A stretch of 64,000 nt of DNA from an uncultured Acidimicrobiales bacterium (GTDB lineage Bacteria; Actinomycetota; Acidimicrobiia; Acidimicrobiales; JANYDT01): assembly GCA_963763885.1 (NCBI GenBank), contig CAVXQD010000001.1, forward strand, positions 497,262 to 561,261, in the 5' to 3' direction. Position numbers and translations under genes: made by a program. The notes under the pieces were generated by a model. It was given only the letters and a program-made list of their open reading frames with translations, did not search any database and was not told where the DNA came from. Shown here one piece after another: positions 1 through 43,057 of the stretch (positions are counted from its first letter, which is position 1; each line of letters starts with the position of its first letter).

Positions 1-355
1 CGCACCCTTGACCCATGCCCATGAGGATGCCCCAGGCCAACCACAGGTGCCACGGTTGGGTTGACAGCGTCGCAAGCAACGCACCGCTTGCGATTGCCAT
101 AAGCGCGCAAACAACCACACGTCGAAGGCCGAAGCGGATCATCAACGCGGCGGCAAACGGCCCCATGAGCCCGTACAGAACCAGGTTAATAGTGGATGCG
201 GTGGCGATGGAAGTGCGTGACCATCCGTATTGCGTGTGCAACGGATCGATCAGTAATCCGAACGCACCGCGTACTGACGCGGTGAGCATCAACACAACAA
301 ACGTTGCGCCCGCCACAACCCAAGCTGGGTGAAGGCGCGTGGACAACGCCACCAT
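1..355 (-). CDS. MFS transporter, N-terminal part (runs off the window edge)
   Basis: The minus frame is open from ATG 355 (alternative GTG 376, overlapping the upstream stop as GTGA) to position 1. My hand translation is MVALSTRLHPAWVVAGATFVVLMLTASVRGAFGLLIDPLHTQYGWSRTSIATASTINLVLYGLMGPFAAALMIRFGLRRVVVCALMAIASGALLATLSTQPWHLWLAWGILMGMGQGC, a typical MFS TM1-TM3 pattern. It is missing from the ORF track because it has no stop in the window. Confidence 0.6.
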   Translation of the reverse strand, partial: MVALSTRLHPAWVVAGATFVVLMLTASVRGAFGLLIDPLHTQYGWSRTSIATASTINLVLYGLMGPFAAALMIRFGLRRVVVCALMAIASGALLATLSTQPWHLWLAWGILMGMGQGC

Positions 356-372
356 CAATGTGTTGGTCCTTT

Positions 373-1153
373 TCACAGCAGCAACCGTGAAGCTGCGATG
401 ACACCAACCAGTGCGATGAGACCTCTGAGTACGCGCGGTGGAATGCGTCGGCCGATTCTGGCTCCCACGAGGCCGCCGGTGATTGAGCCGGTCGCGACCA
501 GGGCAACGGCTGGCCATGCGACGGATGTCTTGGTGAGGAAGACCACCCCGGCAACAAAGGCAACCAGTGTTACCAGCACATTCTTGATTGCGTTGACACG
601 AACCAATGGCTCGTCCAACAAGATGCCCATGATCCCGATGAGGATGACACCTTGGCCGGCCCCGAAGTAGCCGCCGTACATTCCAACGCAACACACGCAA
701 AGCCAAAGGGCCGGGGTGATTCGACCAACCTGCGACGGATCTGTGGATGCGCGGCGTTCTCTCAGCCAGTTCATCACCAGCGGCTGAATGAGCACCAGCA
801 CCACACCGATGATGATGAGGAACGGCACGACAACCTTGAACGTGTCCGAGGACAGGCGGAACAGCAACAAGGCGCCGATTAAGGGCACCGATGGCTGAAG
901 CGCTGGAGAGCACAGCGACGCGTCTCCAATGTCCGCGCAACTCCTGACGGAAACCCCAGGACGCGCCTGCCGAGCCGGGCAGCAGGCCAATGTTGTTGGT
1001 GACGTTTGCGGTGATGTTGTCGAACCCAACCCCCACAAGGGTTGGGAACGAGATCAGGGTTCCGGAACCCACAATGGAGTTGATGAAGCCTGCGGCGCCC
1101 CCGGCGGCAACGATGGCGACGGCTCGACCGATCGTGAGATCGGGGACGGTCAC
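373..1153 (-). pseudogene. TauE/SafE family sulfite-exporter-like permease with an apparent 1-nt frameshift
   Basis: The N-terminus reads from GTG 1153, which overlaps the DAHP synthase stop as GTGA: VTVPDLTIGRAVAIVAAGGAAGFINSIVGSGTLISFPTLVGVGFDNITANVTNNIGLLPGSAGASWGFRQELRGHWRRVAVLSSASAIGAL. The rest of the family-like sequence (LIGALLLFRLSSDTFKVVVPFLIIIG...GGYFGAGQGVILIGIMGILL...) is in the frame of track ORF 373..1038. The two frames meet at a ccc/ggg run near 881-886. Confidence 0.7.
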
Positions 1154-2511
1154 GATTGCAGCAAGTTGGCTGCGTTGAACGCGAGATCCAACGACTGACG
1201 TGCGTTGAGACGAGGATCGCAAATAGTGCGGTAGTTGCCTGAGAGGTGGTCAGCTTCGACCGCGATTGAACCGCCGAGGCACTCGGTGACATTGTCGCCA
1301 GTGAGCTCCAGGTGAAGCCCGCCTGGGTGAACACCAGCCGTATGGCAAGCCACGAAGAACTGCTGCACTTCGCTGAGGACATCGTCGAAGCGGCGCGTCT
1401 TGTGGCCAGACGGCGCGCTGAACGTGTTGCCGTGGCATGGATCGCACGCCCAAACCACAGGGTGCCCGGAGTCCCTCACTGCTTCGAGAATTGGCGGCAG
1501 GGCCGCGGCGATTTTGCCTGCGCCCATACGAACAATCAGCGTGAGACGACCTGGGATTCGATTTGGGTTGAGCGTTTCGCACAGCGCGATCACGTCGCTT
1601 GGTACAGCAGTGGGACCCACCTTGCACCCGATCGGGTTGTGAACGCCCCGTAAGAACTGCACGTGTGCGTCGTTGAGACCTCGTGTGCGTTCGCCGATCC
1701 ACAGCATGTGCGCCGAACAGTCGTACCAGTCACCGCTGGTGGTGTCGCTTCGGGTGAGCGCCTCTTCGTAGTGAAGCAGGAGCGCTTCGTGACTGGTCCA
1801 GAGATCAACCTGCTGGAGCTGCGCTTCTTTTTCAAGGTCAATTCCGCACGCCCGCATAAATCGAATTGCCTTGTCGATACCGGCCGCCAGTTGCTCGTAG
1901 CGCTGACCTTCTGGTGTGGCCGCCACGAACTCCTGTGTCCAGGCGTGAACCCGGGAGATGTCGGCGTAACCGCCCTTGGTGAACGCTCGAAGCAGGTTGA
2001 GAGTTTGTGCTGACTGCTGATACGCAGCAATGAGACGCTCCGGGTCCGGAGTGCGCGCTTCGGCGAACGGAGCGTCGTCGTTGACGATGTGACCGCGGAA
2101 AGACGGCAATTCAACGCCGTCGATGATTTCGGTGTCCGCGCTGCGGGGTTTCGCGAACTGACCTGCGATGCGGCCAACCTTCACCACTGGCAACCCACCC
2201 GAGTACGTGAGGACCGCCGCCATTTGGAGGATGACCTTGAGGCGCTCTCGAATGGACGCAGCCGTTTGATCGTGGAAGCTCTCTGCGCAGTCTCCCGCTT
2301 GCAAGAGAAACGCTCGCCCTGCAGCTACCTCACCCAAAGCTTTGGTCAGCGAGCGCGCTTCACCGGCAAAGACCAGCGGTGGCAGGGTGGACAAGCGCTT
2401 GGTCACGGTGTCTAAGTGCCCGGGATCTGGCCAATTTGGCTGCTGCAACGCCGGATAGTCGCGCCACGATGTGGGTGTCCAATGGCCGGCAGTTGCGACG
2501 TTTTCGGTCAT
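1150..2511 (-). CDS. class II 3-deoxy-7-phosphoheptulonate (DAHP) synthase
   Basis: 453 aa. The N-terminus HWTPTSWRDYPALQQPNWPD, the length and the C-terminal CDPCHGNT / GLHLELTGDNVTEC motifs are typical of class II DAHP synthases. Confidence 0.9.
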   Translation of the reverse strand: MTENVATAGHWTPTSWRDYPALQQPNWPDPGHLDTVTKRLSTLPPLVFAGEARSLTKALGEVAAGRAFLLQAGDCAESFHDQTAASIRERLKVILQMAAVLTYSGGLPVVKVGRIAGQFAKPRSADTEIIDGVELPSFRGHIVNDDAPFAEARTPDPERLIAAYQQSAQTLNLLRAFTKGGYADISRVHAWTQEFVAATPEGQRYEQLAAGIDKAIRFMRACGIDLEKEAQLQQVDLWTSHEALLLHYEEALTRSDTTSGDWYDCSAHMLWIGERTRGLNDAHVQFLRGVHNPIGCKVGPTAVPSDVIALCETLNPNRIPGRLTLIVRMGAGKIAAALPPILEAVRDSGHPVVWACDPCHGNTFSAPSGHKTRRFDDVLSEVQQFFVACHTAGVHPGGLHLELTGDNVTECLGGSIAVEADHLSGNYRTICDPRLNARQSLDLAFNAANLLQS

Positions 2512-2639
2512 CCAGCCAGCCTACTGGTCACCCTCGAGCTTCTTTCATGCGTATTCGCCGGTAACCGTTGCGATGCATCGACGCACTGGGTGTGCGCCCG
2601 GACACGGTGCGCCCGGACCGCTCGCTCTACAGTATCGGC

Positions 2640-3563
2640 GTGAAACCCTTTCGCTTCGGTATCCAACTTCGCAATGCTGAAACAGGAACTGCTTGGCGAG
2701 CGCTCGCAAGACAGGCCGAAGACTGCGGCTACTCCACGTTGTTCATGCCGGACCATTTCGGCGAAACGTGGAGCCCAACCGTCCCATTGACCGTGGCGGC
2801 CGAGGCAACGACGTCGCTCAAGATCGGCGCACTTGTCTACGACAACGACTATCGCCACCCGCTCGTTCTTTCGCGCGACGTCGCTGCGATGGATGTGATG
2901 TTTCCGGGCCGAGTCGAATTCGGAATCGGAGCAGGTTGGATGACAACTGACTACGAGCAATCGGGCATTCCCCTTGATTCGCCAAAAGTTCGTATCGAAC
3001 GGATGGGTGAGGCCATAGAGGTGATCAGGAAGCTTTGGACCGATGAGTCCGTCACCCACAGTGGGCCCCACTACAACCTTGTAGGTGCACAGTGTTTCCC
3101 GCGGCCTGCAACATCCGGAGGCCCGAAGCTCATCGTTGGTGGGGGAGGCCCCAAGGTCTTGGCCATGGCCGCCCGCTACGCAGACATCATCGGAGTCAAC
3201 CCGGAGCTCACCAGCGGCGTTGCGGGCGTCGAAGCGGCCAAGACAGCAGTAGCAGACAGGTATCTGGAACGGATTGGCTGGATAAAAGCCGCGGCCGGAG
3301 ACCGTTTCGAATCCATCGAATTGCAGATCCTCGGAGCGATCGAACAAATCACACCGGACCGAGCCGACTACGCATCAAAAGTGGCGCCACTGTTTGGGCT
3401 GGAGCCCTCAGCTGCACTGGATATGCCGATCGCGATGGTTGGCACGGTCGACGAGGTTTGCGACGACCTGATCAGACGGCGCGAGCAGTTTGGGTTCAAC
3501 TATGTGGTGGTTCACGATCTTGAGGCCTTCGCGCCAGTCGTGGCTCGCCTCGCCGGCACCTGA
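2640..3563 (+). CDS. LLM-class F420-dependent oxidoreductase (luciferase-like monooxygenase family)
   Basis: In-frame GTG 2640 gives VKPFRFGIQLRNAETG..., followed by GYSTLFMPDHF and FGIGAGW motifs. The track ORF starts earlier, at 2568. Confidence 0.75.
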   Translation: MKPFRFGIQLRNAETGTAWRALARQAEDCGYSTLFMPDHFGETWSPTVPLTVAAEATTSLKIGALVYDNDYRHPLVLSRDVAAMDVMFPGRVEFGIGAGWMTTDYEQSGIPLDSPKVRIERMGEAIEVIRKLWTDESVTHSGPHYNLVGAQCFPRPATSGGPKLIVGGGGPKVLAMAARYADIIGVNPELTSGVAGVEAAKTAVADRYLERIGWIKAAAGDRFESIELQILGAIEQITPDRADYASKVAPLFGLEPSAALDMPIAMVGTVDEVCDDLIRRREQFGFNYVVVHDLEAFAPVVARLAGT

Positions 3564-3572
3564 TTTTCGCGG

Positions 3573-4166
3573 ATGACCGGGATGGGGAAACGTATTGGTG
3601 TATTCGGTGGCACCTTCGACCCAATCCACAATGCGCACTTAGCAGTTGGGGTTGCAGCGCGTCACCAATTGCACCTTGACGAAGTGCGCTTCGTCGTTGC
3701 CAACATTCCGTGGCAGAAGGCGAAGCAACGCCGCATCAGCAGCGCAGCTCATCGGCTTGCGATGGTTGGCTTGGCAGTAGAAGGCCGAGCAGGGTTGATG
3801 GCATCTGACCTGGAGATTCGACGGGGCGGTGATTCCTATACGGCCGACACGTTGCAACAGCTACTTGCTGACGAACCGGGGTCGGAATTGTTCCTCATCG
3901 TGGGATCTGACCTTGTTGACGATCTCCCGACGTGGCAGCGCTGGACAGAGATTCCCGCACTCTGTACGTTGGCCGTGGCGTATCGACCGGGCGAGGCAAG
4001 CCATGCCGAACTCACCCCCGGGTGGAGCAGCGTTGACGTCCGTTTGCCTGCGTTGGAACTGTCCAGTACCGAGCTTCGAGAGATGGCCGCACATGGCCGT
4101 CCGCTTGACTTTCTGGTGCCAGACAGCGTTATCGCGTACGTTGCCGAGCATGGGTTGTACCGTTAG
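3573..4166 (+). CDS. nadD: nicotinate-nucleotide adenylyltransferase
   Basis: IGVFGGTFDPIHNAHL nucleotidyltransferase motif. About 197 aa, followed by rsfS as in many bacteria. Confidence 0.9.
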   Translation: MTGMGKRIGVFGGTFDPIHNAHLAVGVAARHQLHLDEVRFVVANIPWQKAKQRRISSAAHRLAMVGLAVEGRAGLMASDLEIRRGGDSYTADTLQQLLADEPGSELFLIVGSDLVDDLPTWQRWTEIPALCTLAVAYRPGEASHAELTPGWSSVDVRLPALELSSTELREMAAHGRPLDFLVPDSVIAYVAEHGLYR

Positions 4167-4178
4167 AGACTGCGCAGC

Positions 4179-4625
4179 TTGTGCGCAACTCTCTCGATAC
4201 CTGCTGATCACGTGCCCCTGACCTCGTCTTATATCCCTCTCGCGTCTGTTGCAGCCCGCGCTGCTGATGCCAAAAAGGCAACAGATGTTGTCATCCTCGA
4301 CGTTGGCGACCTGCTGGGGATCACCGACCTGTTTGTGATCGCGTCGGCCTCCAACCGTCGTTTGGCCCTTACGTTGGCCGACGAAATGGAGCTCGCCGTC
4401 AAACGCGCAGGCGGACCGTCACCTCTTTCGGTTGAAGGTTTGGAAGAAGCGACGTGGATCCTCATCGACTTCGGTCCGTTCGTCGTTCACGTTTTTCAAC
4501 AAGAAACGAGAGAGTTCTACGACCTCGAGCGCCTATGGCGCGATGCTCCGCGGGTTGCGTGGGTGCCCGATACCCCCGCAAACGCTGCGGATTCTGAAGA
4601 AGACTCGGACTCAGACGCCTGTTGA
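4179..4625 (+). CDS. rsfS: ribosome silencing factor RsfS
   Basis: AADAKKATDVVILDVGDLLGITDLFVIASASNRR motif. The tail is acidic. The start is uncertain (alternative GTG 4212). Confidence 0.85.
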   Translation: MCATLSIPADHVPLTSSYIPLASVAARAADAKKATDVVILDVGDLLGITDLFVIASASNRRLALTLADEMELAVKRAGGPSPLSVEGLEEATWILIDFGPFVVHVFQQETREFYDLERLWRDAPRVAWVPDTPANAADSEEDSDSDAC

Positions 4626-4655
4626 CCCTCCGAGGGTCGGTACCCGACGGGGTAC
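4624..4655 (+). terminator. two adjacent short palindromes/hairpins at the rsfS stop
   Basis: gaccctc-c-gagggtc (4624-4638) and gtaccc-gacg-gggtac (4640-4655). There is no T-tract, so the function is uncertain (terminator or operator). Confidence 0.3.
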
Positions 4656-4817
4656 AACAGCTGCTTCGCGTTGGCTTCTAGTCAGAATCCACACAGCGCT
4701 GAATTGTGCTTCAGCTTCCGAGAACGCGTTCAAGTTCATCCCCTTGCCTGCCGAGAAATGAGTGTGGCCCCGAATCAGGGGTGAACGAACTCTCGATTCG
4801 GAAGCAAAGGAGCCGTT

Positions 4818-7481
4818 GTGCTCGGACGACTCAGCATTACTCAGAAGCTTGCAACTGCCGTGGTGGCACCACTGGTGGCGCTTGTCGGTCTGTCCGGTGT
4901 CGGTTTCACGACGTTCAACCGGGTGAAGGTGAACGGACCGGAATACCAGAAGCTGGCGACCACCGCAGACCTGGTAGCAGACGTGCTCCCGCCGCCGCTG
5001 TTCTTCATCGAGTCTCACTTCATTGCACAGAGCATGTTGCAAGCCAACGCCTCGGAGTTTCCTGCTCTTGTCAAGAAGTCCAACGAATTGGAAAAGAGCT
5101 TTGAAGAACGCCATCAGTACTGGGTCGAAAACATCGGTGTCATTGGCGAACCACAGCTCAACGATCCGTTTCTCAAGGAATCCTGGAATTCAGGCGAAGC
5201 GTATTTCAAGGTCTTCAACGACGAGTTTGTCCCTTCGCTGAAGTCCGCCTACTCCCGCGGCTGGGATCCTGACGAAGTTCAGGTGGTTATCAACGAGCCT
5301 GCCGTCAAAGCGCAGACGATCTTCGATTCCAAGCTTGACCCGCTCTATCGCAAGCACCGTGCAGCGATCGATAAGACCGTTCAGATCGCCAATGCGCGCC
5401 GCACCAGCCTGGAATCTGACGTTTCAGCAACCGTTGGCCGACGGTTGTTGGGCCTCGCACTGATTGCCTTCTCGGGCGCCGTTGCGACCTTCTTGCTCAG
5501 CTCGTTTGTGGCCAGGGCAATTCGACGCCCCATCAAGCAGCTCACCGACGCTGCGAACCGCGCTGCGTCTGAGGACCTGCCGTTGATGGTCGCCGCTGCG
5601 CAAGCAGGCGAGGAGTCGCCTGTCTCATCTGCCCAGTTGGTGAACATCGAGTCCAACGACGAGATTGCCGAGTTGGCAGCAGCCTTCGCATCCATGCAGG
5701 GCACCGCAGTTGGTTTGGCCCGGGAACAGGCATTGATTCGTCGCAACGTGGGCGAAAACCTAGTGAACCTCGCACGCCGGAATCAGTCATTGCTTGGACG
5801 TTCGCTTGGTGTGCTCACCCGGTTGGAGCAGGACGAACGAGACCAGGACAAGCTGCAGGATCTGTTCAAGGTTGACCACCTCACTACCCGCATGCGTCGA
5901 AACGCTGAATCGCTGTTGGTACTTGCAGGCGCCGAGCCAAACCGCAAGTGGTCAGCAGGCGTGGAGATGGGTGACGTTGTTCGTGCAGCCGTGTCCGCTA
6001 TCGAAGCCTTCGACCGGGTGGACATTGTCGGCCTCGACGACGTGAAAGTTCGCGGAGCTGCCGTCAACGACGTGGCCCACCTTGTGGCTGAGCTGATTGA
6101 AAATGCGACGAACTTCTCGCCTCCTGACAGCCGCGTCGCCGTGGTTGGTAAGGCTCGCCCAGATGGCTACCTGCTGGTCGTGACGGACGACGGCTTGGGC
6201 ATGAGCGAAGAAGACCTTGCAATTGCCAACGCACGAATTGCCGAGACCTCTGCCTTTGAGTCCAGCCCCACCAAGGTGCTTGGTCTCAACGTGGTGGGCC
6301 GTCTCGCGTACCGATACGGCATCGACGTGTCCCTTGCGACGAGCTCCACTGCTGGCATCGCTGCTCGAATTCAGCTGCCAATCGCTCTCATTGAGACGTC
6401 TGACGAGTCTGCAGCAACACCGTCGCAAACAGCCGAGATGCATGGTGAGTCGGCGCTGGCTGACCCAGGGTTCAACGAGGCTGCCGGGCCTGAAAACCCT
6501 ACGTTCACAGAGCATGGTTCGGATTCAGCGTTTGAAACGAATGACATTCCCGAATGGCTGCAGAACGTGGCAGGCGTGTCGATGGAATCAGATTCGAACG
6601 CAGCTTCGGATTGGGCCACCACCACGTTCGGCCAGCCAGCGATTGCAGCGTTAGCGGTTGACGTTGCTCAGGAAGTTCCAGTACCGAGTGCGATCATCGC
6701 ACCCGCCGTGCCGAACAACGTTCGCTTGTTGCGTCCCGCGCCGCCAGAGAAACCTGCGCTCACGCGTCGAATCAAAGGTGCACAGACGGTTGAAACCGGC
6801 CCGCTGCCAGAAGAGGCACAGGCTCGTCAGGTGCTTGCAGACCCAGAGCGCGCCAGCAGCGTGTTGAGTTCGCTGTCAAGTCTGCAAAGCGGAGTTGAGA
6901 AGGGTCGCTCGATCCATCCAAGCGAGATCCCCCTCGCTGAGGAAGAGCTGACTCCAGTAACCGAAACGACTGCAGCCTCCACTGGTGACACGATGAAACT
7001 TTCGAAGCGAGTCCGTGGAGCTCAGATGGTCGACACAGGCCCAGAGGCTGTCACGCACGGGCCGCTGGAGACCTCTGACGACCCTGAACGCGCTGACACG
7101 GTGAAACGTGCGCTGACCGGTCTCCAGCGCGGCATGGAACGCGGCCGATCCGCGGAGCCAGGCGAACTTCTCGAAGCGTCCTTTGCGGAGACCGTCGAGT
7201 TATCGCCAGCCGCGCTTGCGCTGGAAGAGTCTCCGGCGACCGAAGCCTCCCCGTCACTTCGTAAGCGTGTAAAGGGTGCACAGCTCCCTGTTACCGACTT
7301 GCCCGCTGTCGCGGCGCAGGTTCAATCCGATCCCACCGCTGTGCGGAACGCTTTTGGCAGCCTGCAGCGTGGAGTCACCAGCGCCAGAGAAGCCATTGCC
7401 GGCAGCTCCGACGATTCATACACAGGGCCTTCTGTTGCAGAAGACCCCTCAACTTTGGGCGCTCCGGCGCCGACTCACTGA
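4818..7481 (+). CDS. conservon sensor histidine-kinase-like membrane protein (CvnA-type: N-terminal sensing domain, HAMP, HATPase)
   Basis: AAGGAG sits 6-7 nt before GTG 4818. The N-terminal TM is LATAVVAPLVALVGLSG and a second TM plus a HAMP-like segment lie near residue 210. ATPase motifs are HLVAELIENATNFSPP and VVTDDGLGM. It is followed by roadblock, DUF742 and GTPase genes. Confidence 0.8.
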   Translation: MLGRLSITQKLATAVVAPLVALVGLSGVGFTTFNRVKVNGPEYQKLATTADLVADVLPPPLFFIESHFIAQSMLQANASEFPALVKKSNELEKSFEERHQYWVENIGVIGEPQLNDPFLKESWNSGEAYFKVFNDEFVPSLKSAYSRGWDPDEVQVVINEPAVKAQTIFDSKLDPLYRKHRAAIDKTVQIANARRTSLESDVSATVGRRLLGLALIAFSGAVATFLLSSFVARAIRRPIKQLTDAANRAASEDLPLMVAAAQAGEESPVSSAQLVNIESNDEIAELAAAFASMQGTAVGLAREQALIRRNVGENLVNLARRNQSLLGRSLGVLTRLEQDERDQDKLQDLFKVDHLTTRMRRNAESLLVLAGAEPNRKWSAGVEMGDVVRAAVSAIEAFDRVDIVGLDDVKVRGAAVNDVAHLVAELIENATNFSPPDSRVAVVGKARPDGYLLVVTDDGLGMSEEDLAIANARIAETSAFESSPTKVLGLNVVGRLAYRYGIDVSLATSSTAGIAARIQLPIALIETSDESAATPSQTAEMHGESALADPGFNEAAGPENPTFTEHGSDSAFETNDIPEWLQNVAGVSMESDSNAASDWATTTFGQPAIAALAVDVAQEVPVPSAIIAPAVPNNVRLLRPAPPEKPALTRRIKGAQTVETGPLPEEAQARQVLADPERASSVLSSLSSLQSGVEKGRSIHPSEIPLAEEELTPVTETTAASTGDTMKLSKRVRGAQMVDTGPEAVTHGPLETSDDPERADTVKRALTGLQRGMERGRSAEPGELLEASFAETVELSPAALALEESPATEASPSLRKRVKGAQLPVTDLPAVAAQVQSDPTAVRNAFGSLQRGVTSAREAIAGSSDDSYTGPSVAEDPSTLGAPAPTH
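6759..7395 (+). repeat. three degenerate protein-level tandem repeats in the kinase C-terminal tail
   Basis: The three copies are LTRRIKGAQTVETGP...DPERASSVLSSLSSLQSGVEKGRS, LSKRVRGAQMVDTGP...DPERADTVKRALTGLQRGMERGRS and LRKRVKGAQLPVTDLP...DPTAVRNAFGSLQRGVTSAR. Confidence 0.6.
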
Positions 7482-7518
7482 CAGCCGACTTCGTGTCGTA
7501 CCGAAAAGGAACAGACCA

Positions 7519-7944
7519 ATGACAACAACGCTGACCAGCCAGGTAAAGAACGTCAACTGGCTGATGTCGAGATTCGTGAGCGACACCGTTGGTGTCGAGC
7601 AGGCAATCGCGGTGTCCTCCGACGGACTGCTTATGGCCATCTCGTCAAACCTTGATCGTGCCTCGGCCGACAAGATGGCCGCCATCGTCACCGGCATGCG
7701 TTCGCTCTCCGACGGCGCAGCACGTGTGCTTGGCAAGGGTGGTATGTCACAGGTGCTTGTGGAAATGCACGACGCGTACCTGTTCATCGCAACCATCTCC
7801 GGCGGCTCGTCGCTCGGCGTTGTCACCTCGAAGAACGCTGATCTCGGCCTTGTCGGCTACGAGATCACCCTCCTCGTCCAACGGGTTGGAACGCAGCTGA
7901 CCCCCGAACTTGTGTCGGAGCTGAAGCACAGCCTTGGCGTCTGA
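7519..7944 (+). CDS. roadblock/LC7 domain protein (CvnB-type)
   Basis: ATG 7519 is preceded by aagga. The sequence MTTTLTSQVKNVNWLMSRFVSDTVGVEQAIAVSSDGLLMA...AYLFI is the typical roadblock/MglB-like pattern. The track ORF is over-extended to 7276. Confidence 0.8.
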   Translation: MTTTLTSQVKNVNWLMSRFVSDTVGVEQAIAVSSDGLLMAISSNLDRASADKMAAIVTGMRSLSDGAARVLGKGGMSQVLVEMHDAYLFIATISGGSSLGVVTSKNADLGLVGYEITLLVQRVGTQLTPELVSELKHSLGV

Positions 7945-8006
7945 CGCCTTCGCAAGCTTCAGCACTCACTCAACTTCCGCTCCCACAACTCCCACGTTGC
8001 CCCACA

Positions 8007-38069: not shown

Positions 38070-38429
38070 ATGTCAGAAGACCTTCCGGCGGCACCACTTT
38101 CCCCCACGGCCACATTGGCATCGCTTGGCATCACCATGCTTGCTGACCGGGTATTGGTCCATATTCCCTCTCCCGACGGCGAGCGCCGATCCAAAGGTGG
38201 CCTGCTGATTCCCGCCACGGCGCAAGCGTCGCGGCGACTCGCGTGGGCACAGGTCGTTGCCATTGGGCCTGGCGTCCGGCTCATCCAGTTAGGTGACCGC
38301 GTGCTCTTCAACCCGGAAGATCGGTACGAAGTTGAAGTCGGTGGTGAGGATTACCTCCTCCTGCGCGAGCGGGATATTCACGGCGTCTCAGCGGGACGAT
38401 CCAACGGAGCAACCGGCCTGTACCTATAG
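38070..38429 (+). CDS. divergent GroES/Cpn10-family co-chaperone paralogue
   Basis: ATG 38070. [30 protein letters not shown]...AQVVAIGPG...[29 protein letters not shown] aligns by eye to the GroES pattern. Confidence 0.75.
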
Positions 38430-41325
38430 CTCGAGCGCGTATGACGAAGCCTTTACTGGTCTGCACGTCTCGTATTGGAATGATCCGGTGGGCGGCGCGT
38501 CTCACTTCAACGGCGCGCCAGTCGTCACAGGTATCGCTAATCCAGGTCCTACCTTCTACTACGACTGGACAACCGGTTCGCCTGGCACGGGTATCAACAG
38601 CGACTTCTTCTCCGCCCGGTACACCGGTTATGTCACGTTCCCGACCCCGGGTACTTACCAGCTACGTAATGTGCAAGACAACGGGTCACGGCTGTGGATC
38701 GATGACCAACTTATCCTGGACAACATGTCCCAAATACGTGGACAATCGAACCCCGCCCAGTATGTCGTCACCGGTACGAACGAGACTCATCGGATACGTT
38801 TGGACTACTTCGAGCTGAACGCAGAAGCGTTGATTGGAATCAATGTTGCGACGCCCGGCGCAACATCGTGGCAACTGATACCCACCTCGTGGCTCAAACC
38901 TGCTTACGACCTACCAACGACCACAACGACCTATGACGCAACTGCTGGTTCGCCAGCCAGCGTGGTGAATGCCAGCTATGGGACGACACCGTGGTTGAAG
39001 CTTGTCCGGAGTTCCACTGTGTCGCCTGGCGGCATAAACTTGAAGACGGAATATAACTATGACTCGGCGAACCGTAACCGCCTAGAGTCCAAGCTCCTCC
39101 CCGGAGGAACGGTCTGGAGCTACGAATACTGGGGTCCATCCGACGCCGGCGGTACGCAGTGTCCCGGGGCTGGAACCCAGATGGGCCGTCTAAAGCGCAA
39201 AGTTCGTGCTGGTACATCGTCTCGCCTCGTTGAGGACTACGTGTACGACAACACCGGGCGGATCATCCGCCATGCTCAATCGAACATAAATGGAACCGGC
39301 GGCGTGAACTCGTCATGTTACGAGTACGACGTGCGTGGACGACCAACGAAACGGTCGAACGCCACAACCGGAACCAACACGGTGGCGCAAACCACCACGT
39401 GGGGTTATTCGTTCAACAACAACCCGACAATCAGCGTGTTGAACCAGAACGCCAACTCCAATCCGGCGCCGGCTATCCCAGGAAATATGGGTTCGGATGA
39501 GTTCATCTATCGGGATTGGCTGGGAAGGATGACGTACTACCAGGATGGTTTCAACAACTGGACCGCGTATTCCTTTAACACGGCCGGGCTTTTGTTTAAT
39601 GAATCCAAAGGTTTCGATTTGATCAACACGACAGGTACCGAAGCCGGCCGGCATAACGTTGCTCGTGACTACTTGGGTGATGGCCGTCCATGGAAGGTTC
39701 GGTTCGTTCCGGCTGGGCAAGCTTCGGTAGACGCTGCTGTGCTTGCTTACACGCCGACGGGTGATCTGAATACGATTACGTATGCGAATAACACCCGCTT
39801 GCAGGTCGGTTATGACGTTTTGTTGCGTCAAAACCGGGTGACGTGGCAGACCACCTCGACCGGTGTCTCGTTTGCGTCTGATGCGGTGACGTTGTCGCAG
39901 TCTGGGCGGATTGTTGATCAGTCACTCGATGGGGTGGATGCGAACGCAGCGAGTGGGAACTTCGTATATGACGCTGCAAGTCGTTTGGCGAAGGCGTTCG
40001 TGCCGTCGAACACGTTCGATTACGAGTTCGCCGCGACTGCCGCGTGTGGTCAAGCTGGGGCGGGGAAGAACGGGAACCGGACCCGGGTCTTGCAGAATGG
40101 GGTTGTGCGTGACACGTTCTGTACGAATGATCAGGATCAGACGTACTCGCGTACGGGGGCTGCTATCGATTTTGTTTTCGATGGTCTGGGGCGGATGACG
40201 TCCGGGTACACGAAGACGTTTACGTATGACTCGTTGAATCGGCATCGGTCAACGGTTGGTGCTGGGGTAACGGCGACGTTGTTGCTGGATGGTCGTGACC
40301 GTCGGGTTGGTAGGACTGCGACTGGTGACACAACAACCTGGTACTCGTACGCGGGCCCAAGTGACTCACCAACATGGACGATGGTCCCGAACGGGGCCGG
40401 TCGACGCGTGTCGGACTACGTAGTGCCACTTCCTGGTGGGGTGACGATCAACCGGCAAGAACTTCCTGCTGTGACGGCGAAATGGTCGTATCCGAACATG
40501 CACGGCAGCCTTCTTGCTGTGACCGACAACGCTGGTGTGAAACAAGGCGCCACCTACAAATGGGACCCCGATGGCATGCCCATCGCCAGTACAACCCAAC
40601 CAAACTTGACCACCGGCAACTACGAGAACGGCTGGTTGGGATCACACCAGCGGATGACTGACACCACTGACCCGGCGAACCCGGTCATCAACATGGGAGC
40701 CCGCGTCTACCTCCCACGACTCGCCAAATTCACCTCACCAGACCCTGTCGAAGGAGGCGTCGGCAACGCCGACTACCTCTACCCACCAGACCCCATCAAC
40801 GGATTGGATCTGAGTGGACGAATTCTCACCGACGACACCGGGAACGGGTCATGGGGAGGAAACATCTGTTCCGATCGCCTCGGATGCACCCAGCGACCCG
40901 GAGTGAGTGGTTATCGGGACTGGACCGGGTTGCACCAGTGGATCGCAGAAAACGGCGACGATATAGCGTTGACACTGGAAGCGGCTTCAGTGATTTGCGG
41001 CGGAGCCGCTTTGGTGGCTTCTCCGACCGGCGTGGGTGCCGTTGCGTTTGGTGCCTGCTCAGGTGCTGCCGGAATCGGGTCAACTGTCGCAGTCGTGTCA
41101 CGCGCTCTGGTTTGTGACGTAACCGAGATGCGCGGAACGAAAGCTTGTGCCGGTGCTTCTGCAGACCTCGCTATGGAAGTTGTTTTCCTCGGTTACGGAA
41201 GCTCAGCGAAGCTAGTCATCAAAGGCGGAGGGAACCAGTTCATTGCGAAGCGAGGTAGTGAATTCTTTGAATGGTTCTGGAACATTTGGACTTTCACCGT
41301 TGACTACGGCCAGCGAGTTAGCTGA
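38293..41325 (+). CDS. PA14-domain + RHS/YD-repeat polymorphic toxin with a variable C-terminal domain (true start unclear)
   Basis: A PA14-like block (GLHVSYWND...[36 protein letters not shown]) comes first. Many YD repeats follow ([27 protein letters not shown]). The RHS core end is [18 protein letters not shown]...[15 protein letters not shown], then about 170 aa of unrelated tail. GC is lower than in flanking genes: my hand counts of two 100-nt samples gave 53% and 59%, against 73% in a trpC sample. Confidence 0.85.
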
Positions 41326-41588
41326 TGAAAATAGTTATGAAGACCGGATTGTTCCTATTGGTTCTTCCAGTTCTCGGGTCTCCGATCATTCTCGCCCTCC
41401 TCCCCTTCGCTATCAAACAGATAGGTCTGGACCAGACGTTTTCCTGGCTTGCTCACCCACTAAGACATGCTCGCCACAACAGTCTCGATGCCCCTGATGC
41501 TTTGCGCTTTTGGACCGGAGCAATTGTTGCGTCCTTGGTTTCTATCCCTGTCATTCTGGTCGCCCTGATAGTGGAGCTTCTCACGTGA
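41325..41588 (+). CDS. candidate immunity protein: 87-aa two-TM membrane protein
   Basis: Its ATG shares its A with the toxin TGA (tgATG). The two hydrophobic helices are LFLLVLPVLGSPIILALLPFAI and IVASLVSIPVILVALIVELL. GC is about 46% over the first 100 nt by hand count. Confidence 0.5.
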   Translation: MKIVMKTGLFLLVLPVLGSPIILALLPFAIKQIGLDQTFSWLAHPLRHARHNSLDAPDALRFWTGAIVASLVSIPVILVALIVELLT

Positions 41589-41714
41589 TCTCACCCGCTT
41601 GGTTGTCGTAACTCGTCGCGTAACGCCACGACTGGTCCCGAGTCTTACCGATGCTGCTGTTTGAGAACGCTGGAGGATTTTGGCCCCACTTGAGGGGTTT
41701 CGCGCTGGGGCGAG

Positions 41715-42868
41715 TTCTGTCGGTCGTTGCTACACGGTTTGATTTCTGAGTGTATCGAAACGCTGTTGCGGGGAGTCCCAGCTGAGCGTCTTGCGGGGTC
41801 GTTCATTGAGCTCTCGTTCAACCTCAGCGAGCCGTTCGGCACTGTGCAGGTAGAGGTCAGTGCGCTTTGGGAAGTACCCGCTTAGGAGGCCGTTGGTGTT
41901 CTCGTTCGACGGGCGTTGCCATGGCGAACGCGGGTCGCAGAAGAACACCGGTATCCCTGTTGTCAACGGCCAATATGTTGTCCTCGGTGGTGGCCAGGTG
42001 AAAGTCCTCGCGGCTGGTCACTTCGGGGGTGATCGATGCTTTCAGCTGATCGGCAGTTCGTGCCCCGTTGAGGTGGACGACCATCGTGTACCTGGTGACC
42101 CGCTCAACCAGCGTTCCAATGGCCGACCCGTTGAACTCTCCGACAATCAGATTTCCTTCCCAATAACCGGCCTCGGTTCGGTCAGCGGCCCCTGCTTGTC
42201 GCTCGCTCACCGGGCTCATCGGCGTCACGAAACGCTGTTGTCGCTCACCAACAACACGCCGCCTGCGGCGTTGCAGTCGACGCGTACGCAAGGCCTTCTC
42301 CCGGCGGAGCGGGACAAGGGGTTGTAGATCCCGCGGTAGGTCGACCCCACCGAGACTTGCGGGCCGTCAGCACGTTTGGCCAACGATACCGAGATCTGCT
42401 CCGGGCTCCACTGCTTATCTAGTAGCAGCTGAACCTCAGCACTCACGACCGGGTCAGCAAGCTTGTGCGCTTTGGGCCGAGGTCGCCGCCCGATCATCTT
42501 GTTATGCGCTCGGTACGGCTGATACTCATCCGCTTCGCTGTTCCGATTGAACTCGCGACAAATCGTTGACACCGCTCGACCAGGTAGCAACGCAGCAATC
42601 CCCCCGGCCGGACAAACCGAGTCGCTCGGCGTCGGCGATCGGCGAGTACACATTCGACCGGTCGTTGAACTTCGCCCGGCGGCCGTGCTGCCACCGCACA
42701 CCAGTCTTCCGGTTGACCCCAACCCGACGACACGCCTTCGGCATTACTCAAACCTGTCTTCATCAACTCGACATAGAAAGCCCGCTTCTCCACCAACGGG
42801 AAACCACCACCACGACCCCATAAACCTCACCTCTCAGACTGTTCAAGGTGTAGCCACGACCCTCAGAA
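41715..42868 (-). mobile_element. decayed IS30-family insertion sequence (about 1.15 kb)
   Basis: The terminal inverted repeats are ttctgtcggtcgttgctacac (41715-41735) and the reverse complement of 42848-42868, ttctgagggtcgtggctacac, matching at 18 of 21 positions. They enclose IS30-type transposase fragments. Confidence 0.65.
41730..42796 (-). pseudogene. IS30-family DDE transposase, multiply frameshifted
   Basis: Homology is spread over at least 4 frames. The pieces are an N-terminal HTH (MVEKRAFYVELMKTGLSNAE, then ACRRVGVNRKTGVRWQHGR), WSPEQISVSL, GYWEGNLIVG...TLVERVTRY and FFCDPRSPWQRPSNENTNGLLSGYFPKRTDL...LNERPRKTL. Confidence 0.75.
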
Positions 42869-43043
42869 TCCACCAAAGGAATGCGCGGAAAGTGTCGCAG
42901 CAGCAAAACGTGACGATCCGCCCCTGGAGGGTTCCTCATCAACACGCCCACATCGTGCGTTACCCCTCCTCGTGTCCCAAGGAAAGCAGAAGTCACACTC
43001 AGTGCGTATCCCAATCGGCGTACCGTGCCCTCGTCCTAGTTGA

Positions 43044-43057
43044 CTAGCTATAGCTAG
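43044..43057. repeat. perfect 14-bp palindrome ctagctatagctag in a CTAG-rich patch upstream of hisI
   Basis: Read directly from the sequence. A further ctag is at 43036-43039. It sits at the junction between the island and hisI. Confidence 0.6.

Follow-up and report, generated by a model that had tools for sequence, protein, structure and literature searches.

The stretch of DNA analysed here, hereafter the window, comprises 64 kb (64,000 nucleotides, nt) of contig CAVXQD010000001.1 from an uncultured Acidimicrobiales bacterium. A NucS protein and the taxonomic labels of the relatives also point to the Actinomycetota, probably the Acidimicrobiia. All positions are numbered within this window, and P and L numbers are our labels for proteins and loci. 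Between a GroES-like gene and the remains of a transposase, the window carries the 3' part of a gene for an Rhs/YD-repeat protein, which ends in a variable C-terminal tail and overlaps a short downstream open reading frame (ORF), the mini-ORF (Table 1). The tail, as a candidate toxin, and the mini-ORF, as its candidate immunity protein, are the subject of this report. Both had been pointed out in an earlier annotation of the same DNA made from its letters and reading frames, which we call the sequence-only reading.

The Rhs nature of the protein is apparent from its relatives and from the end of its core. Relatives (best E 1e-53) are annotated as 'RHS repeat-associated core domain-containing protein' (6e-50) or 'YD repeat protein' (6e-34); on the protein itself, the Pfam RHS models gave no match at E <= 1, a PA14 domain being its sole Pfam match. 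In an alignment with four relatives, the core-end columns W..MGAR.Y.P..F.S.DP.E.G..Y.Y..DP.N..DL.G are invariant. The closest relative recovered is L005, an Rhs gene from a metagenome-assembled genome (MAG) of the Acidimicrobiia, with 47% identity over 634 amino acids (aa) by BLASTP. The same comparison shows 63% identity over the last 188 core residues, up to the DLSGR/DLTGR at residue 846, and no similarity past that residue. This end of the similarity indicates that the boundary between core and tail is real. It also bears out the sequence-only reading, which had the core end near 40818: the motif ends at nt 40818 and the similarity to L005 stops at residue 846. The core end at 40818 is the expected autoproteolytic boundary ahead of the putative toxin. 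As for the PA14 domain, a PDB search with the whole Rhs protein matched PA14 proteins, and the domain lies at the same place in the Rhs relatives P0003, P0005 and L005. It may serve the Rhs protein as a cell-surface glycan-binding module for targeting.

The tail measures 168 aa, close to the 170 or so first reported, and the strings quoted from it at that time, the aromatic C-terminus included, are present exactly. As the sequence-only reading also held, it belongs to no recognised toxin family, since no Pfam or NCBIfam family fits. Searches of the tail against Pfam, NCBIfam, PHROGs and PADLOC returned sub-threshold noise alone (a PRK04169 fragment), and in PDB sequence searches at E <= 10, both the tail and a three-member profile matched nothing but unrelated chains; a full-length Tse5 cryo-EM structure has been published (cited in PMC11630599), its presence in the searched PDB copy being unconfirmed. 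When 1.84 billion representative proteins were searched exhaustively with phmmer, two true homologues with 30-42% identity emerged, namely P0014 on contig L002 (112 aa, E = 1e-11, 42% identity) and P0015 on L001 (194 aa, E = 1.5e-5); two further matches in this search we read as repeat or low-complexity artefacts. Both homologues stem from environmental assemblies and are related to Acidimicrobiia Rhs proteins. P0015 opens with the Rhs core end MGARPYVP...DPINGMDLNG and is therefore an orphan Rhs C-terminal fragment. The L002 contig opens with PDPVNGLDLSGEYCLTGKNKNGSCRS and carries the core end PDPVNGLDLSG. In this Logan contig, core end and linker lie in frame 1 and the tail domain in frame 2, and the break between them, at about nt 140-160, is a frameshift or an assembly error.

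Aligning the three tails reveals 20 invariant columns, among them four cysteines and the motifs GD, LE, CG.A, ST, R...C and C.GA..D, and the window tail retains all family-invariant residues. The first ~45 residues of the tail form a variable linker with two more cysteines. The conserved domain that follows leads from an acidic start (GDD..LE) through a Gly/Ala-rich stretch and the four conserved cysteines to a Trp/Phe-rich amphipathic C-terminal helix. The four conserved cysteines probably form two disulfides, and their pairing suggests that these are extracellular.

Further members of the family were sought in several ways. A profile of the three-way alignment, run against 78 actinobacterial Rhs loci, found none beyond the window, L001 and L002; tail peptide patterns found no relatives in JGI metagenome contigs and GTDB representative genomes; and a degenerate DNA pattern that we built by hand from the invariant residues matched metagenomes 68 times, though none of these matches scored above chance when compared with the family profile. 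A word-index homologue search with a 178-aa tail query returned no match, not even P0002, the public gene call of the window protein, whose tail is 100% identical; negatives from this search are thus unreliable for low-complexity or Gly/Ala-rich queries. Three copies is a lower bound, as a representative library built at 50% identity may mask different tails behind one core. Judged from these comparisons of sequence, the tail is a genuine, conserved polymorphic domain at the C-terminus of an Rhs protein. Its family is rare and unnamed, and all three copies found sit on Rhs core ends.

Which features of this domain point to the membrane? The Gly/Ala-rich stretch is marginally hydrophobic, and its summed Hessa insertion energies (+2.6 and +3.4) are less favourable than those of the mini-ORF helices (see below). 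It is too weak for a constitutive anchor and typical of a toxin that passes from a soluble to a membrane-bound state. No other part of the tail reaches as high a helical hydrophobic moment as the Trp/Phe-rich C-terminal segment, and the matching segment of P0014 likewise has the top value of its own protein (0.56). A third pointer is that the tail shows no sign of a catalytic family. The sequence-only reading had also seen glycine-zipper-like stretches in the tail. Under the motif definition of PMC12744356, the window tail has 2 strict zipper 9-mers where composition-preserving shuffles average 2.4, P0014 has 1 against 0.9 and P0015 has 0 against 1.1, so that the apparent zippers are an effect of composition. 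The Gly/Ala-rich stretch, the Trp/Phe-rich C-terminus and the four conserved cysteines are suggestive, and only suggestive, of action at the membrane.

The hydrophobic segments of the tail, together with the carbohydrate-binding PA14 domain, would also fit a non-toxic tail that anchors or extends a surface Rhs/PA14 adhesin, in which case the mini-ORF would encode an unrelated membrane protein. We regard this as very improbable. The tail begins exactly at the core-end cleavage motif, where relatives turn unrelated to one another, which is the signature of polymorphic toxins; orphan cassettes of core end, tail and small ORF occur in arrays; and the hydrophobic stretch lacks the strength that a stable anchor would need. 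On its weakness and on the loss of similarity at the core end, we rejected the membrane-anchor reading. A reading as anti-phage defence was rejected as well, after a library scan without a match.

We now turn to the mini-ORF. Its ATG (41325-41327) shares one base with the TGA of the Rhs gene (41323-41325; TGATG), just as the sequence-only reading had described. The two transmembrane (TM) helices assigned to its 87-aa product at that time proved to be two strongly hydrophobic segments on both scales applied, with Kyte-Doolittle 19-residue maxima of 2.5 and 2.75 and summed Hessa insertion energies of +0.3 and -0.6. An AlphaFold2 model of the product is all-helical (helices 2-33, 35-51 and 56-86) at a predicted local distance difference test score (pLDDT) of 71. 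The mini-ORF is called as a gene in the public record, where its product, P0001, forms a singleton cluster. No homologues of it were found, and Pfam, NCBIfam, PHROGs and PADLOC returned sub-threshold noise (Vps55, Proton_antipo_C).

Small ORFs with hydrophobic helices directly follow both tail homologues as well. On L001, an ORF of 133 aa (2531-2932) starts 18 nt past the tail stop and encodes hydrophobic N- and C-terminal helices and a basic loop. On L002, an ORF of 81-102 aa encodes two hydrophobic helices around an Arg-rich loop at about nt 520-765, starting either at a TTG at nt 457, which overlaps the 3' end of the tail, or at an ATG at nt 520, about 24 nt past the stop. The summed Hessa energies of the helices in both products support membrane insertion. 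The three products have no detectable sequence similarity to one another. The idea that tail and mini-ORF travel together in homologous loci therefore stands for position and topology, in all three loci, and fails for sequence. To gauge chance, we asked how often a given position has an ORF with two or more hydrophobic peaks lying between -60 and +150 nt from it. Such an ORF follows 3/3 copies of the tail family, compared with 9.6% of random positions in comparable loci; three out of three would arise by chance with a probability of about 1e-3 at the random rate and of about 0.05 at the rate for Rhs tails (36%). The small hydrophobic-helix ORFs directly behind both tail homologues support the reading of tail and mini-ORF as a toxin/immunity cassette, which we consider highly probable. 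By analogy, the mini-ORF product is supported as the kind of small two-helix membrane protein that may serve as an immunity protein, as Tsi5 does.

A survey of Rhs tails among relatives places the cassette in context. From 53 related loci, nearly all actinobacterial, we took 63 tails with a length of 60 aa or more and added the window tail, P0014 and P0015. These 66 tails fall into 39 unrelated clusters, mostly singletons; many unrelated tails on a shared core are the standard behaviour of polymorphic toxin domains (PMC3482391). At E <= 1e-3, Pfam matched five of the 45 other short, non-redundant actinobacterial tails (two prokaryotic phospholipases A2, DUF6973, HNH and ADP-ribosyl cyclase), while 40 of the 45 went without a match. 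At least one hydrophobic window is present in 29/61 actinobacterial Rhs tails, and behind 22/61 (36%) lies an ORF with two or more hydrophobic peaks. Membrane-type ORFs stand behind 13 of the 29 hydrophobic tails (45%) and behind 9 of the 32 others (28%), an odds ratio of 2.1 (p = 0.19). P0003 and P0004, too, have Gly/Ala-rich hydrophobic tails followed by membrane ORFs; these tails are not homologous to that of the window, to which they show no significant similarity. Hydrophobic Rhs tails that defy classification and come with a membrane mini-ORF are thus the norm in this actinobacterial clade, and the suggestion in the sequence-only reading that an actinobacterial version with such a tail would be new was overstated, as hydrophobic, unclassifiable tails are common there. 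The tails from the 53 loci mostly have even cysteine counts (2, 4, 6 or 8), a hint that they may be toxins held together by disulfides outside the cell. A separate type of tail, 309-327 aa long, occurs in Streptomyces, Kitasatospora and Actinosynnema (L051, L052, L054, L056, L062, L065, L070, L072, L073, L075, L080 and L081). These tails share a pre-toxin region TFSWKSVV...GQLAQGNK and a Hint-like segment (CNSF.PDT.V.MADG...), and then run into variable C-terminal toxins.

Upon examination of its other end, the window Rhs gene proved to be truncated, a point absent from the sequence-only reading. In tblastn comparisons of three relatives with the window, similarity begins at residue 157 of P0003 and residue 459 of P0005. 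By BLASTP, the first aligned residue of the window protein is residue 28 (nt 38374), opposite residue 244 of L005. The frame upstream of the MGAR motif extends over ~806 aa in the window and over at least 1400 aa in 29 relatives, the latter figure being a lower bound since their ORFs run off the fetched flank. The start of the alignments inside the relatives and the short frame ahead of MGAR show that the gene is 5'-truncated. It has lost at least ~240 N-terminal residues, and probably more than 600. The junction, at ~38374-38390, lies within the last codons of the GroES-like gene. By eye, we saw no hydrophobic signal peptide in the first 60 residues of the ORF and no obvious ribosome-binding site, and a promoter/terminator scan around junction and cassette gave no signal above shuffle expectation. 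Searching the window by tblastn with the relatives' sequences, we found no main rhs gene. The loss of the N-terminal part and the lack of an obvious signal peptide make delivery of the toxin from this locus unlikely, and the locus is best read as an orphan Rhs cassette.

Truncated Rhs fragments with a tail and a small ORF are common among the relatives. The truncated Rhs fragment of P0003 adjoins an IS3-type transposase (IS, insertion sequence), and that of P0004 (621 aa) begins right after a trehalose-phosphatase gene. L005 (nt 65-7950, MAG VAR_78_metabat_618) comprises the main Rhs gene, an ORF for a membrane protein of 161 aa, an orphan fragment, a 371-aa ORF and a near-copy of the 161-aa ORF. 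Its orphan Rhs C-terminal fragment has 347 aa and a Cys-rich hydrophobic tail, and the body of its main Rhs protein contains two tandem inserted domains of ~190 aa that are absent from the window gene. On L001, a repeated domain with Thr/Ser-rich linkers (nt 165-1970 and 3208-3400) lies in frame with the short Rhs core end, across an N gap; this domain presumably has a LamG/concanavalin-type lectin fold, going by its look. The junction ...VPVLRWSYSTIRGSLLA occurs twice in L001, which suggests recombination or misassembly at orphan cassettes.

In the window, a degraded transposase in at least three frame pieces lies directly downstream of the cassette. We take it to be of the IS30 type from the motifs WSPEQIS, GYWEGNLI and FCDPRSPWQRPSNENTNGLL, recognised by eye; Pfam found nothing on the pieces at E <= 1e-3. 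Rhs fragment, mini-ORF and IS remnant make up a block of lower GC content (38374-43050, GC 0.50-0.58 compared with 0.60-0.65 in the flanks) that splits the histidine-biosynthesis genes, the order being hisA, hisF, a methyltransferase gene and the GroES-like gene, the block, and hisI. The block looks like an insertion into the his operon, with its left junction replacing the natural 3' end of the GroES-like gene. In 300-nt windows, the GC minimum of the region (0.50) falls on the 3' end of the tail and the mini-ORF. The sequence-only reading had given the mini-ORF about 46% GC as the lowest coding stretch; the figure is in fact 51.0%, and the local minimum at tail end and mini-ORF holds.

This setting raises the question of whether the locus is a dead relic. 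The truncated Rhs ORF, the tail and the mini-ORF would then be what is left of an old insertion, free of both expression and selection, and the mini-ORF would be a chance ORF. The 5' truncation, the want of an obvious signal peptide and of a recognisable start or promoter signal, the decayed IS30-type transposase next door and a mini-ORF without homologues all lean that way, as does the finding that ORFs of such lengths are common (103 of at least 50 aa in 12 kb). GC at third codon positions (GC3) is 0.57 in the tail and 0.55 in the mini-ORF, below the 0.61-0.68 of housekeeping genes, which horizontal exchange of toxin/immunity cassettes explains equally well. We nevertheless judge a relic to be quite unlikely: the 1010-codon frame is still open, the tail has kept every residue that is invariant in its family, and two very strong hydrophobic helices are encoded after the stop, as they are after both homologues, an arrangement found at 9.6% of control positions.

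Table 1. Features of the orphan Rhs locus and its surroundings (window coordinates)
Feature	Position	Strand	Remarks
GroES-like (Cpn10) gene	38136..38429	+	Pfam Cpn10, E = 1.2e-16; domain ends 38387, stop ends 38429
Rhs/YD-repeat ORF	38293..41325	+	1010 codons counted from the first in-frame GTG; 5'-truncated
Public gene call P0002	GTG start 38488	+	945 aa of the Rhs ORF
PA14 domain (carbohydrate-binding type)	38506..38835	+	Rhs residues 72-181; Pfam PF07691, E = 1.8e-15
Rhs-associated core end	40666..40818	+	residues 792-842; NCBIfam TIGR03696, 30.5 bits (cut-off 32.5)
Variable C-terminal tail, candidate toxin	40819..41322	+	168 aa; stop 41323-41325
Conserved domain of the tail family	40936..41301	+	ORF residues 882-1003, ~120 aa; from the three-way alignment
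Gly/Ala-rich, marginally hydrophobic stretch	40963..41097	+	tail residues 49-93 (45 residues); Kyte-Doolittle maximum 1.9
Trp/Phe-rich amphipathic C-terminal segment	41236..41316	+	helical hydrophobic moment 0.49, the maximum of the tail
Mini-ORF, candidate immunity protein	41325..41588	+	87 aa; start overlaps the Rhs stop
Hydrophobic helices of the mini-ORF	~41343-41417 and ~41511-41585	+	residues ~7-31 and ~63-87
Degraded transposase, presumed IS30-type	41650-42722	-	at least three frame pieces; directly downstream of the cassette

Taken as a whole, the locus is best explained as an orphan Rhs cassette that would encode a membrane-depolarising tail and a membrane immunity protein, a reading to which we assign a probability of roughly 0.55. 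In the mechanism that we propose, the 168-aa tail would be cut free of the Rhs core at the core-end boundary, and the mini-ORF, probably coupled translationally to the Rhs gene, would encode a specific immunity protein. Once released outside the producer, the tail domain would bind to and insert into the cytoplasmic membrane of a neighbour and dissipate its membrane potential, in the manner of Tse5-CT (the C-terminal toxin domain of Tse5), the ionophores of contact-dependent inhibition (CDI) or the depolarising LXG toxins. In sibling cells, the membrane immunity protein would keep the domain from inserting or assembling. At the window locus itself, the immunity gene may still protect its bearer, and the cassette may serve as a reserve for recombination. 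The depolarising mechanism, considered alone, is a plausible inference to which we give slightly less than even odds.

A cassette of this kind could instead carry a tail that forms no pore. It might act on the membrane from its outer side, hit a target embedded in the membrane (for example by binding lipid II or a transporter) or have a small, unrecognised enzymatic activity, and the immunity protein would then reside in the membrane because the toxin acts or enters there. Membrane-type ORFs follow 28% of the non-hydrophobic actinobacterial Rhs tails, too, and are thus not specific to pore-formers; the conserved GD, LE, R and D together with the four cysteines fit a folded, disulfide-stabilised domain better than a simple hydrophobic peptide; and glycine zippers are not enriched. 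We consider such a toxin unlikely all the same, given that the conserved domain has just ~120 aa, about a third of which is the Gly/Ala-rich stretch, that no catalytic family or motif was detected in the tail, and that an aromatic amphipathic C-terminus is typical of binding at the membrane interface.

Several observations weigh against a depolarising tail with a membrane immunity protein. The hydrophobicity of the tail stretch is marginal by its Hessa energies, and strict glycine-zipper motifs are not enriched in it. The AlphaFold2 model of the tail, built from the three-sequence alignment, mixes helices and strands at pLDDT 43 and is unusable as support for a pore. Since membrane ORFs are not significantly tied to hydrophobic tails in the survey, the topology of an immunity protein is weak evidence for the target of its toxin. 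The equivalence of the three immunity candidates is a matter of position and topology, and the case for expression of the mini-ORF is made up of its position, its hydrophobic helices and the public gene call. Finally, with L002 frameshifted and the window copy truncated, at least two of the three copies of the tail family may be decaying.

By itself, a further unclassified tail at the end of a truncated Rhs gene is nothing unusual and would not surprise specialists in polymorphic toxins. If the tail does depolarise membranes, it would add an unrelated sequence family to a short list of pore-formers (Tse5-CT, Tox-WTIP, CDI ionophores and LXG zipper toxins), and one from the Acidimicrobiia, a poorly studied and mostly uncultured class of actinobacteria. 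The survey, in which 40/45 short tails lack a Pfam match and, of 61 tails, about half have a hydrophobic segment and about a third precede a membrane ORF, suggests that single-membrane bacteria lacking a type VI secretion system (T6SS) may lean heavily on toxins that act on the membrane from outside. More tentatively, and with odds that we set distinctly below even, the tail might found a new family of disulfide-stapled, membrane-inserting Rhs domains, so far met only with Acidimicrobiia-type cores, that kill single-membrane neighbours by depolarising them from outside and are paired with fast-evolving membrane immunity proteins of two or three helices; in a wider sense, the many hydrophobic, Cys-rich, unclassified tails on actinobacterial Rhs proteins might be a large untapped set of membrane-active antibacterial domains in bacteria without a T6SS.

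Known membrane-active toxins offer partial parallels. Tox-WTIP, which Zhang et al. (2012) list as the pore-forming domain among polymorphic toxins, is small and hydrophobic, sits at the C-terminus of RHS proteins, is confined to proteobacteria and is predicted to be non-catalytic; its two membrane helices carry RxxR and Wx[ST]IP motifs. From the same source, Imm-CdiI is a two-TM-helix protein (PMC3482391). Both Tox-WTIP motifs are absent from all three members of the tail family, which rules out membership. The secreted LXG toxins TelE, EsxX and TspA of Gram-positive bacteria depolarise the target membrane and are countered by the membrane-bound immunity proteins TsaI and ExiCD (PMC12744356). 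Like the proposed toxin, they belong to single-membrane bacteria, act from outside and pair with membrane immunity; unlike it, they have an LXG delivery domain of the type VII secretion system in place of an Rhs core, and an extended (G/A/S)xxxGxxxG or GxxxGxxx(G/S/T) zipper that is conserved and essential in them. As this motif is neither enriched nor conserved in the tail family, membership among the glycine-zipper toxins of the TelE/EsxX/TspA type is ruled out.

The CDI ionophores of the CdiA-CT EC93 type are polymorphic C-terminal toxins that combine a variable N-terminal part with a C-terminal domain inserting into membranes, and they have highly divergent immunity proteins (~30% identity within one toxin group; PMC11630599), and in this they resemble the window tail with its family's three unalignable immunity candidates. 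They differ in their delivery by CdiA and the type V secretion system in Gram-negative bacteria and in their predicted five-helix bundles, which hijack specific inner-membrane proteins, and no sequence similarity between them and the tail was found.

Closest in layout is Tse5 (RhsP1, PA2684) with Tsi5, of the H1-T6SS of P. aeruginosa. The 149-aa Tse5-CT, which lacked a predicted function, forms pores, and its immunity protein Tsi5 has two predicted TM regions (PMC9637101). As in the window, the 150-170 aa that follow the Rhs core constitute the toxin, belong to no enzyme family and contain hydrophobic and amphipathic segments, and a small immunity protein with two TM helices, in the window a predicted one, is encoded next to them. 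In contrast to Tse5, the window gene is 5'-truncated and lacks a PAAR or VgrG context, and phmmer and PDB searches detect no sequence similarity between the two, so that membership in the Tse5-CT family is not supported by sequence or profile homology. To our knowledge the actinobacterial host has no T6SS, and we know of no counterpart in Tse5-CT to the four conserved cysteines of the tail. The precedent that the sequence-only reading had drawn from Tse5/Tsi5 thus holds for the small two-helix membrane immunity protein. It does not extend to homology, and a membrane ORF by itself does not indicate a toxin that attacks membranes.

For the arrangement of the locus, the nearest parallel is given by the orphan rhs-CT/rhsI modules of enterobacteria and Serratia, which are displaced 3' fragments of Rhs genes downstream of a main rhs gene. 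Like these modules, the window locus is a 5'-truncated fragment that keeps the core end, the tail and the candidate immunity gene and is accompanied by IS remnants; it differs in that its fragment is unusually long (~820 aa of core) and stands alone inside a his operon. The main gene and orphan array of L005 likewise resemble the orphan rhs-CT/rhsI arrangement.

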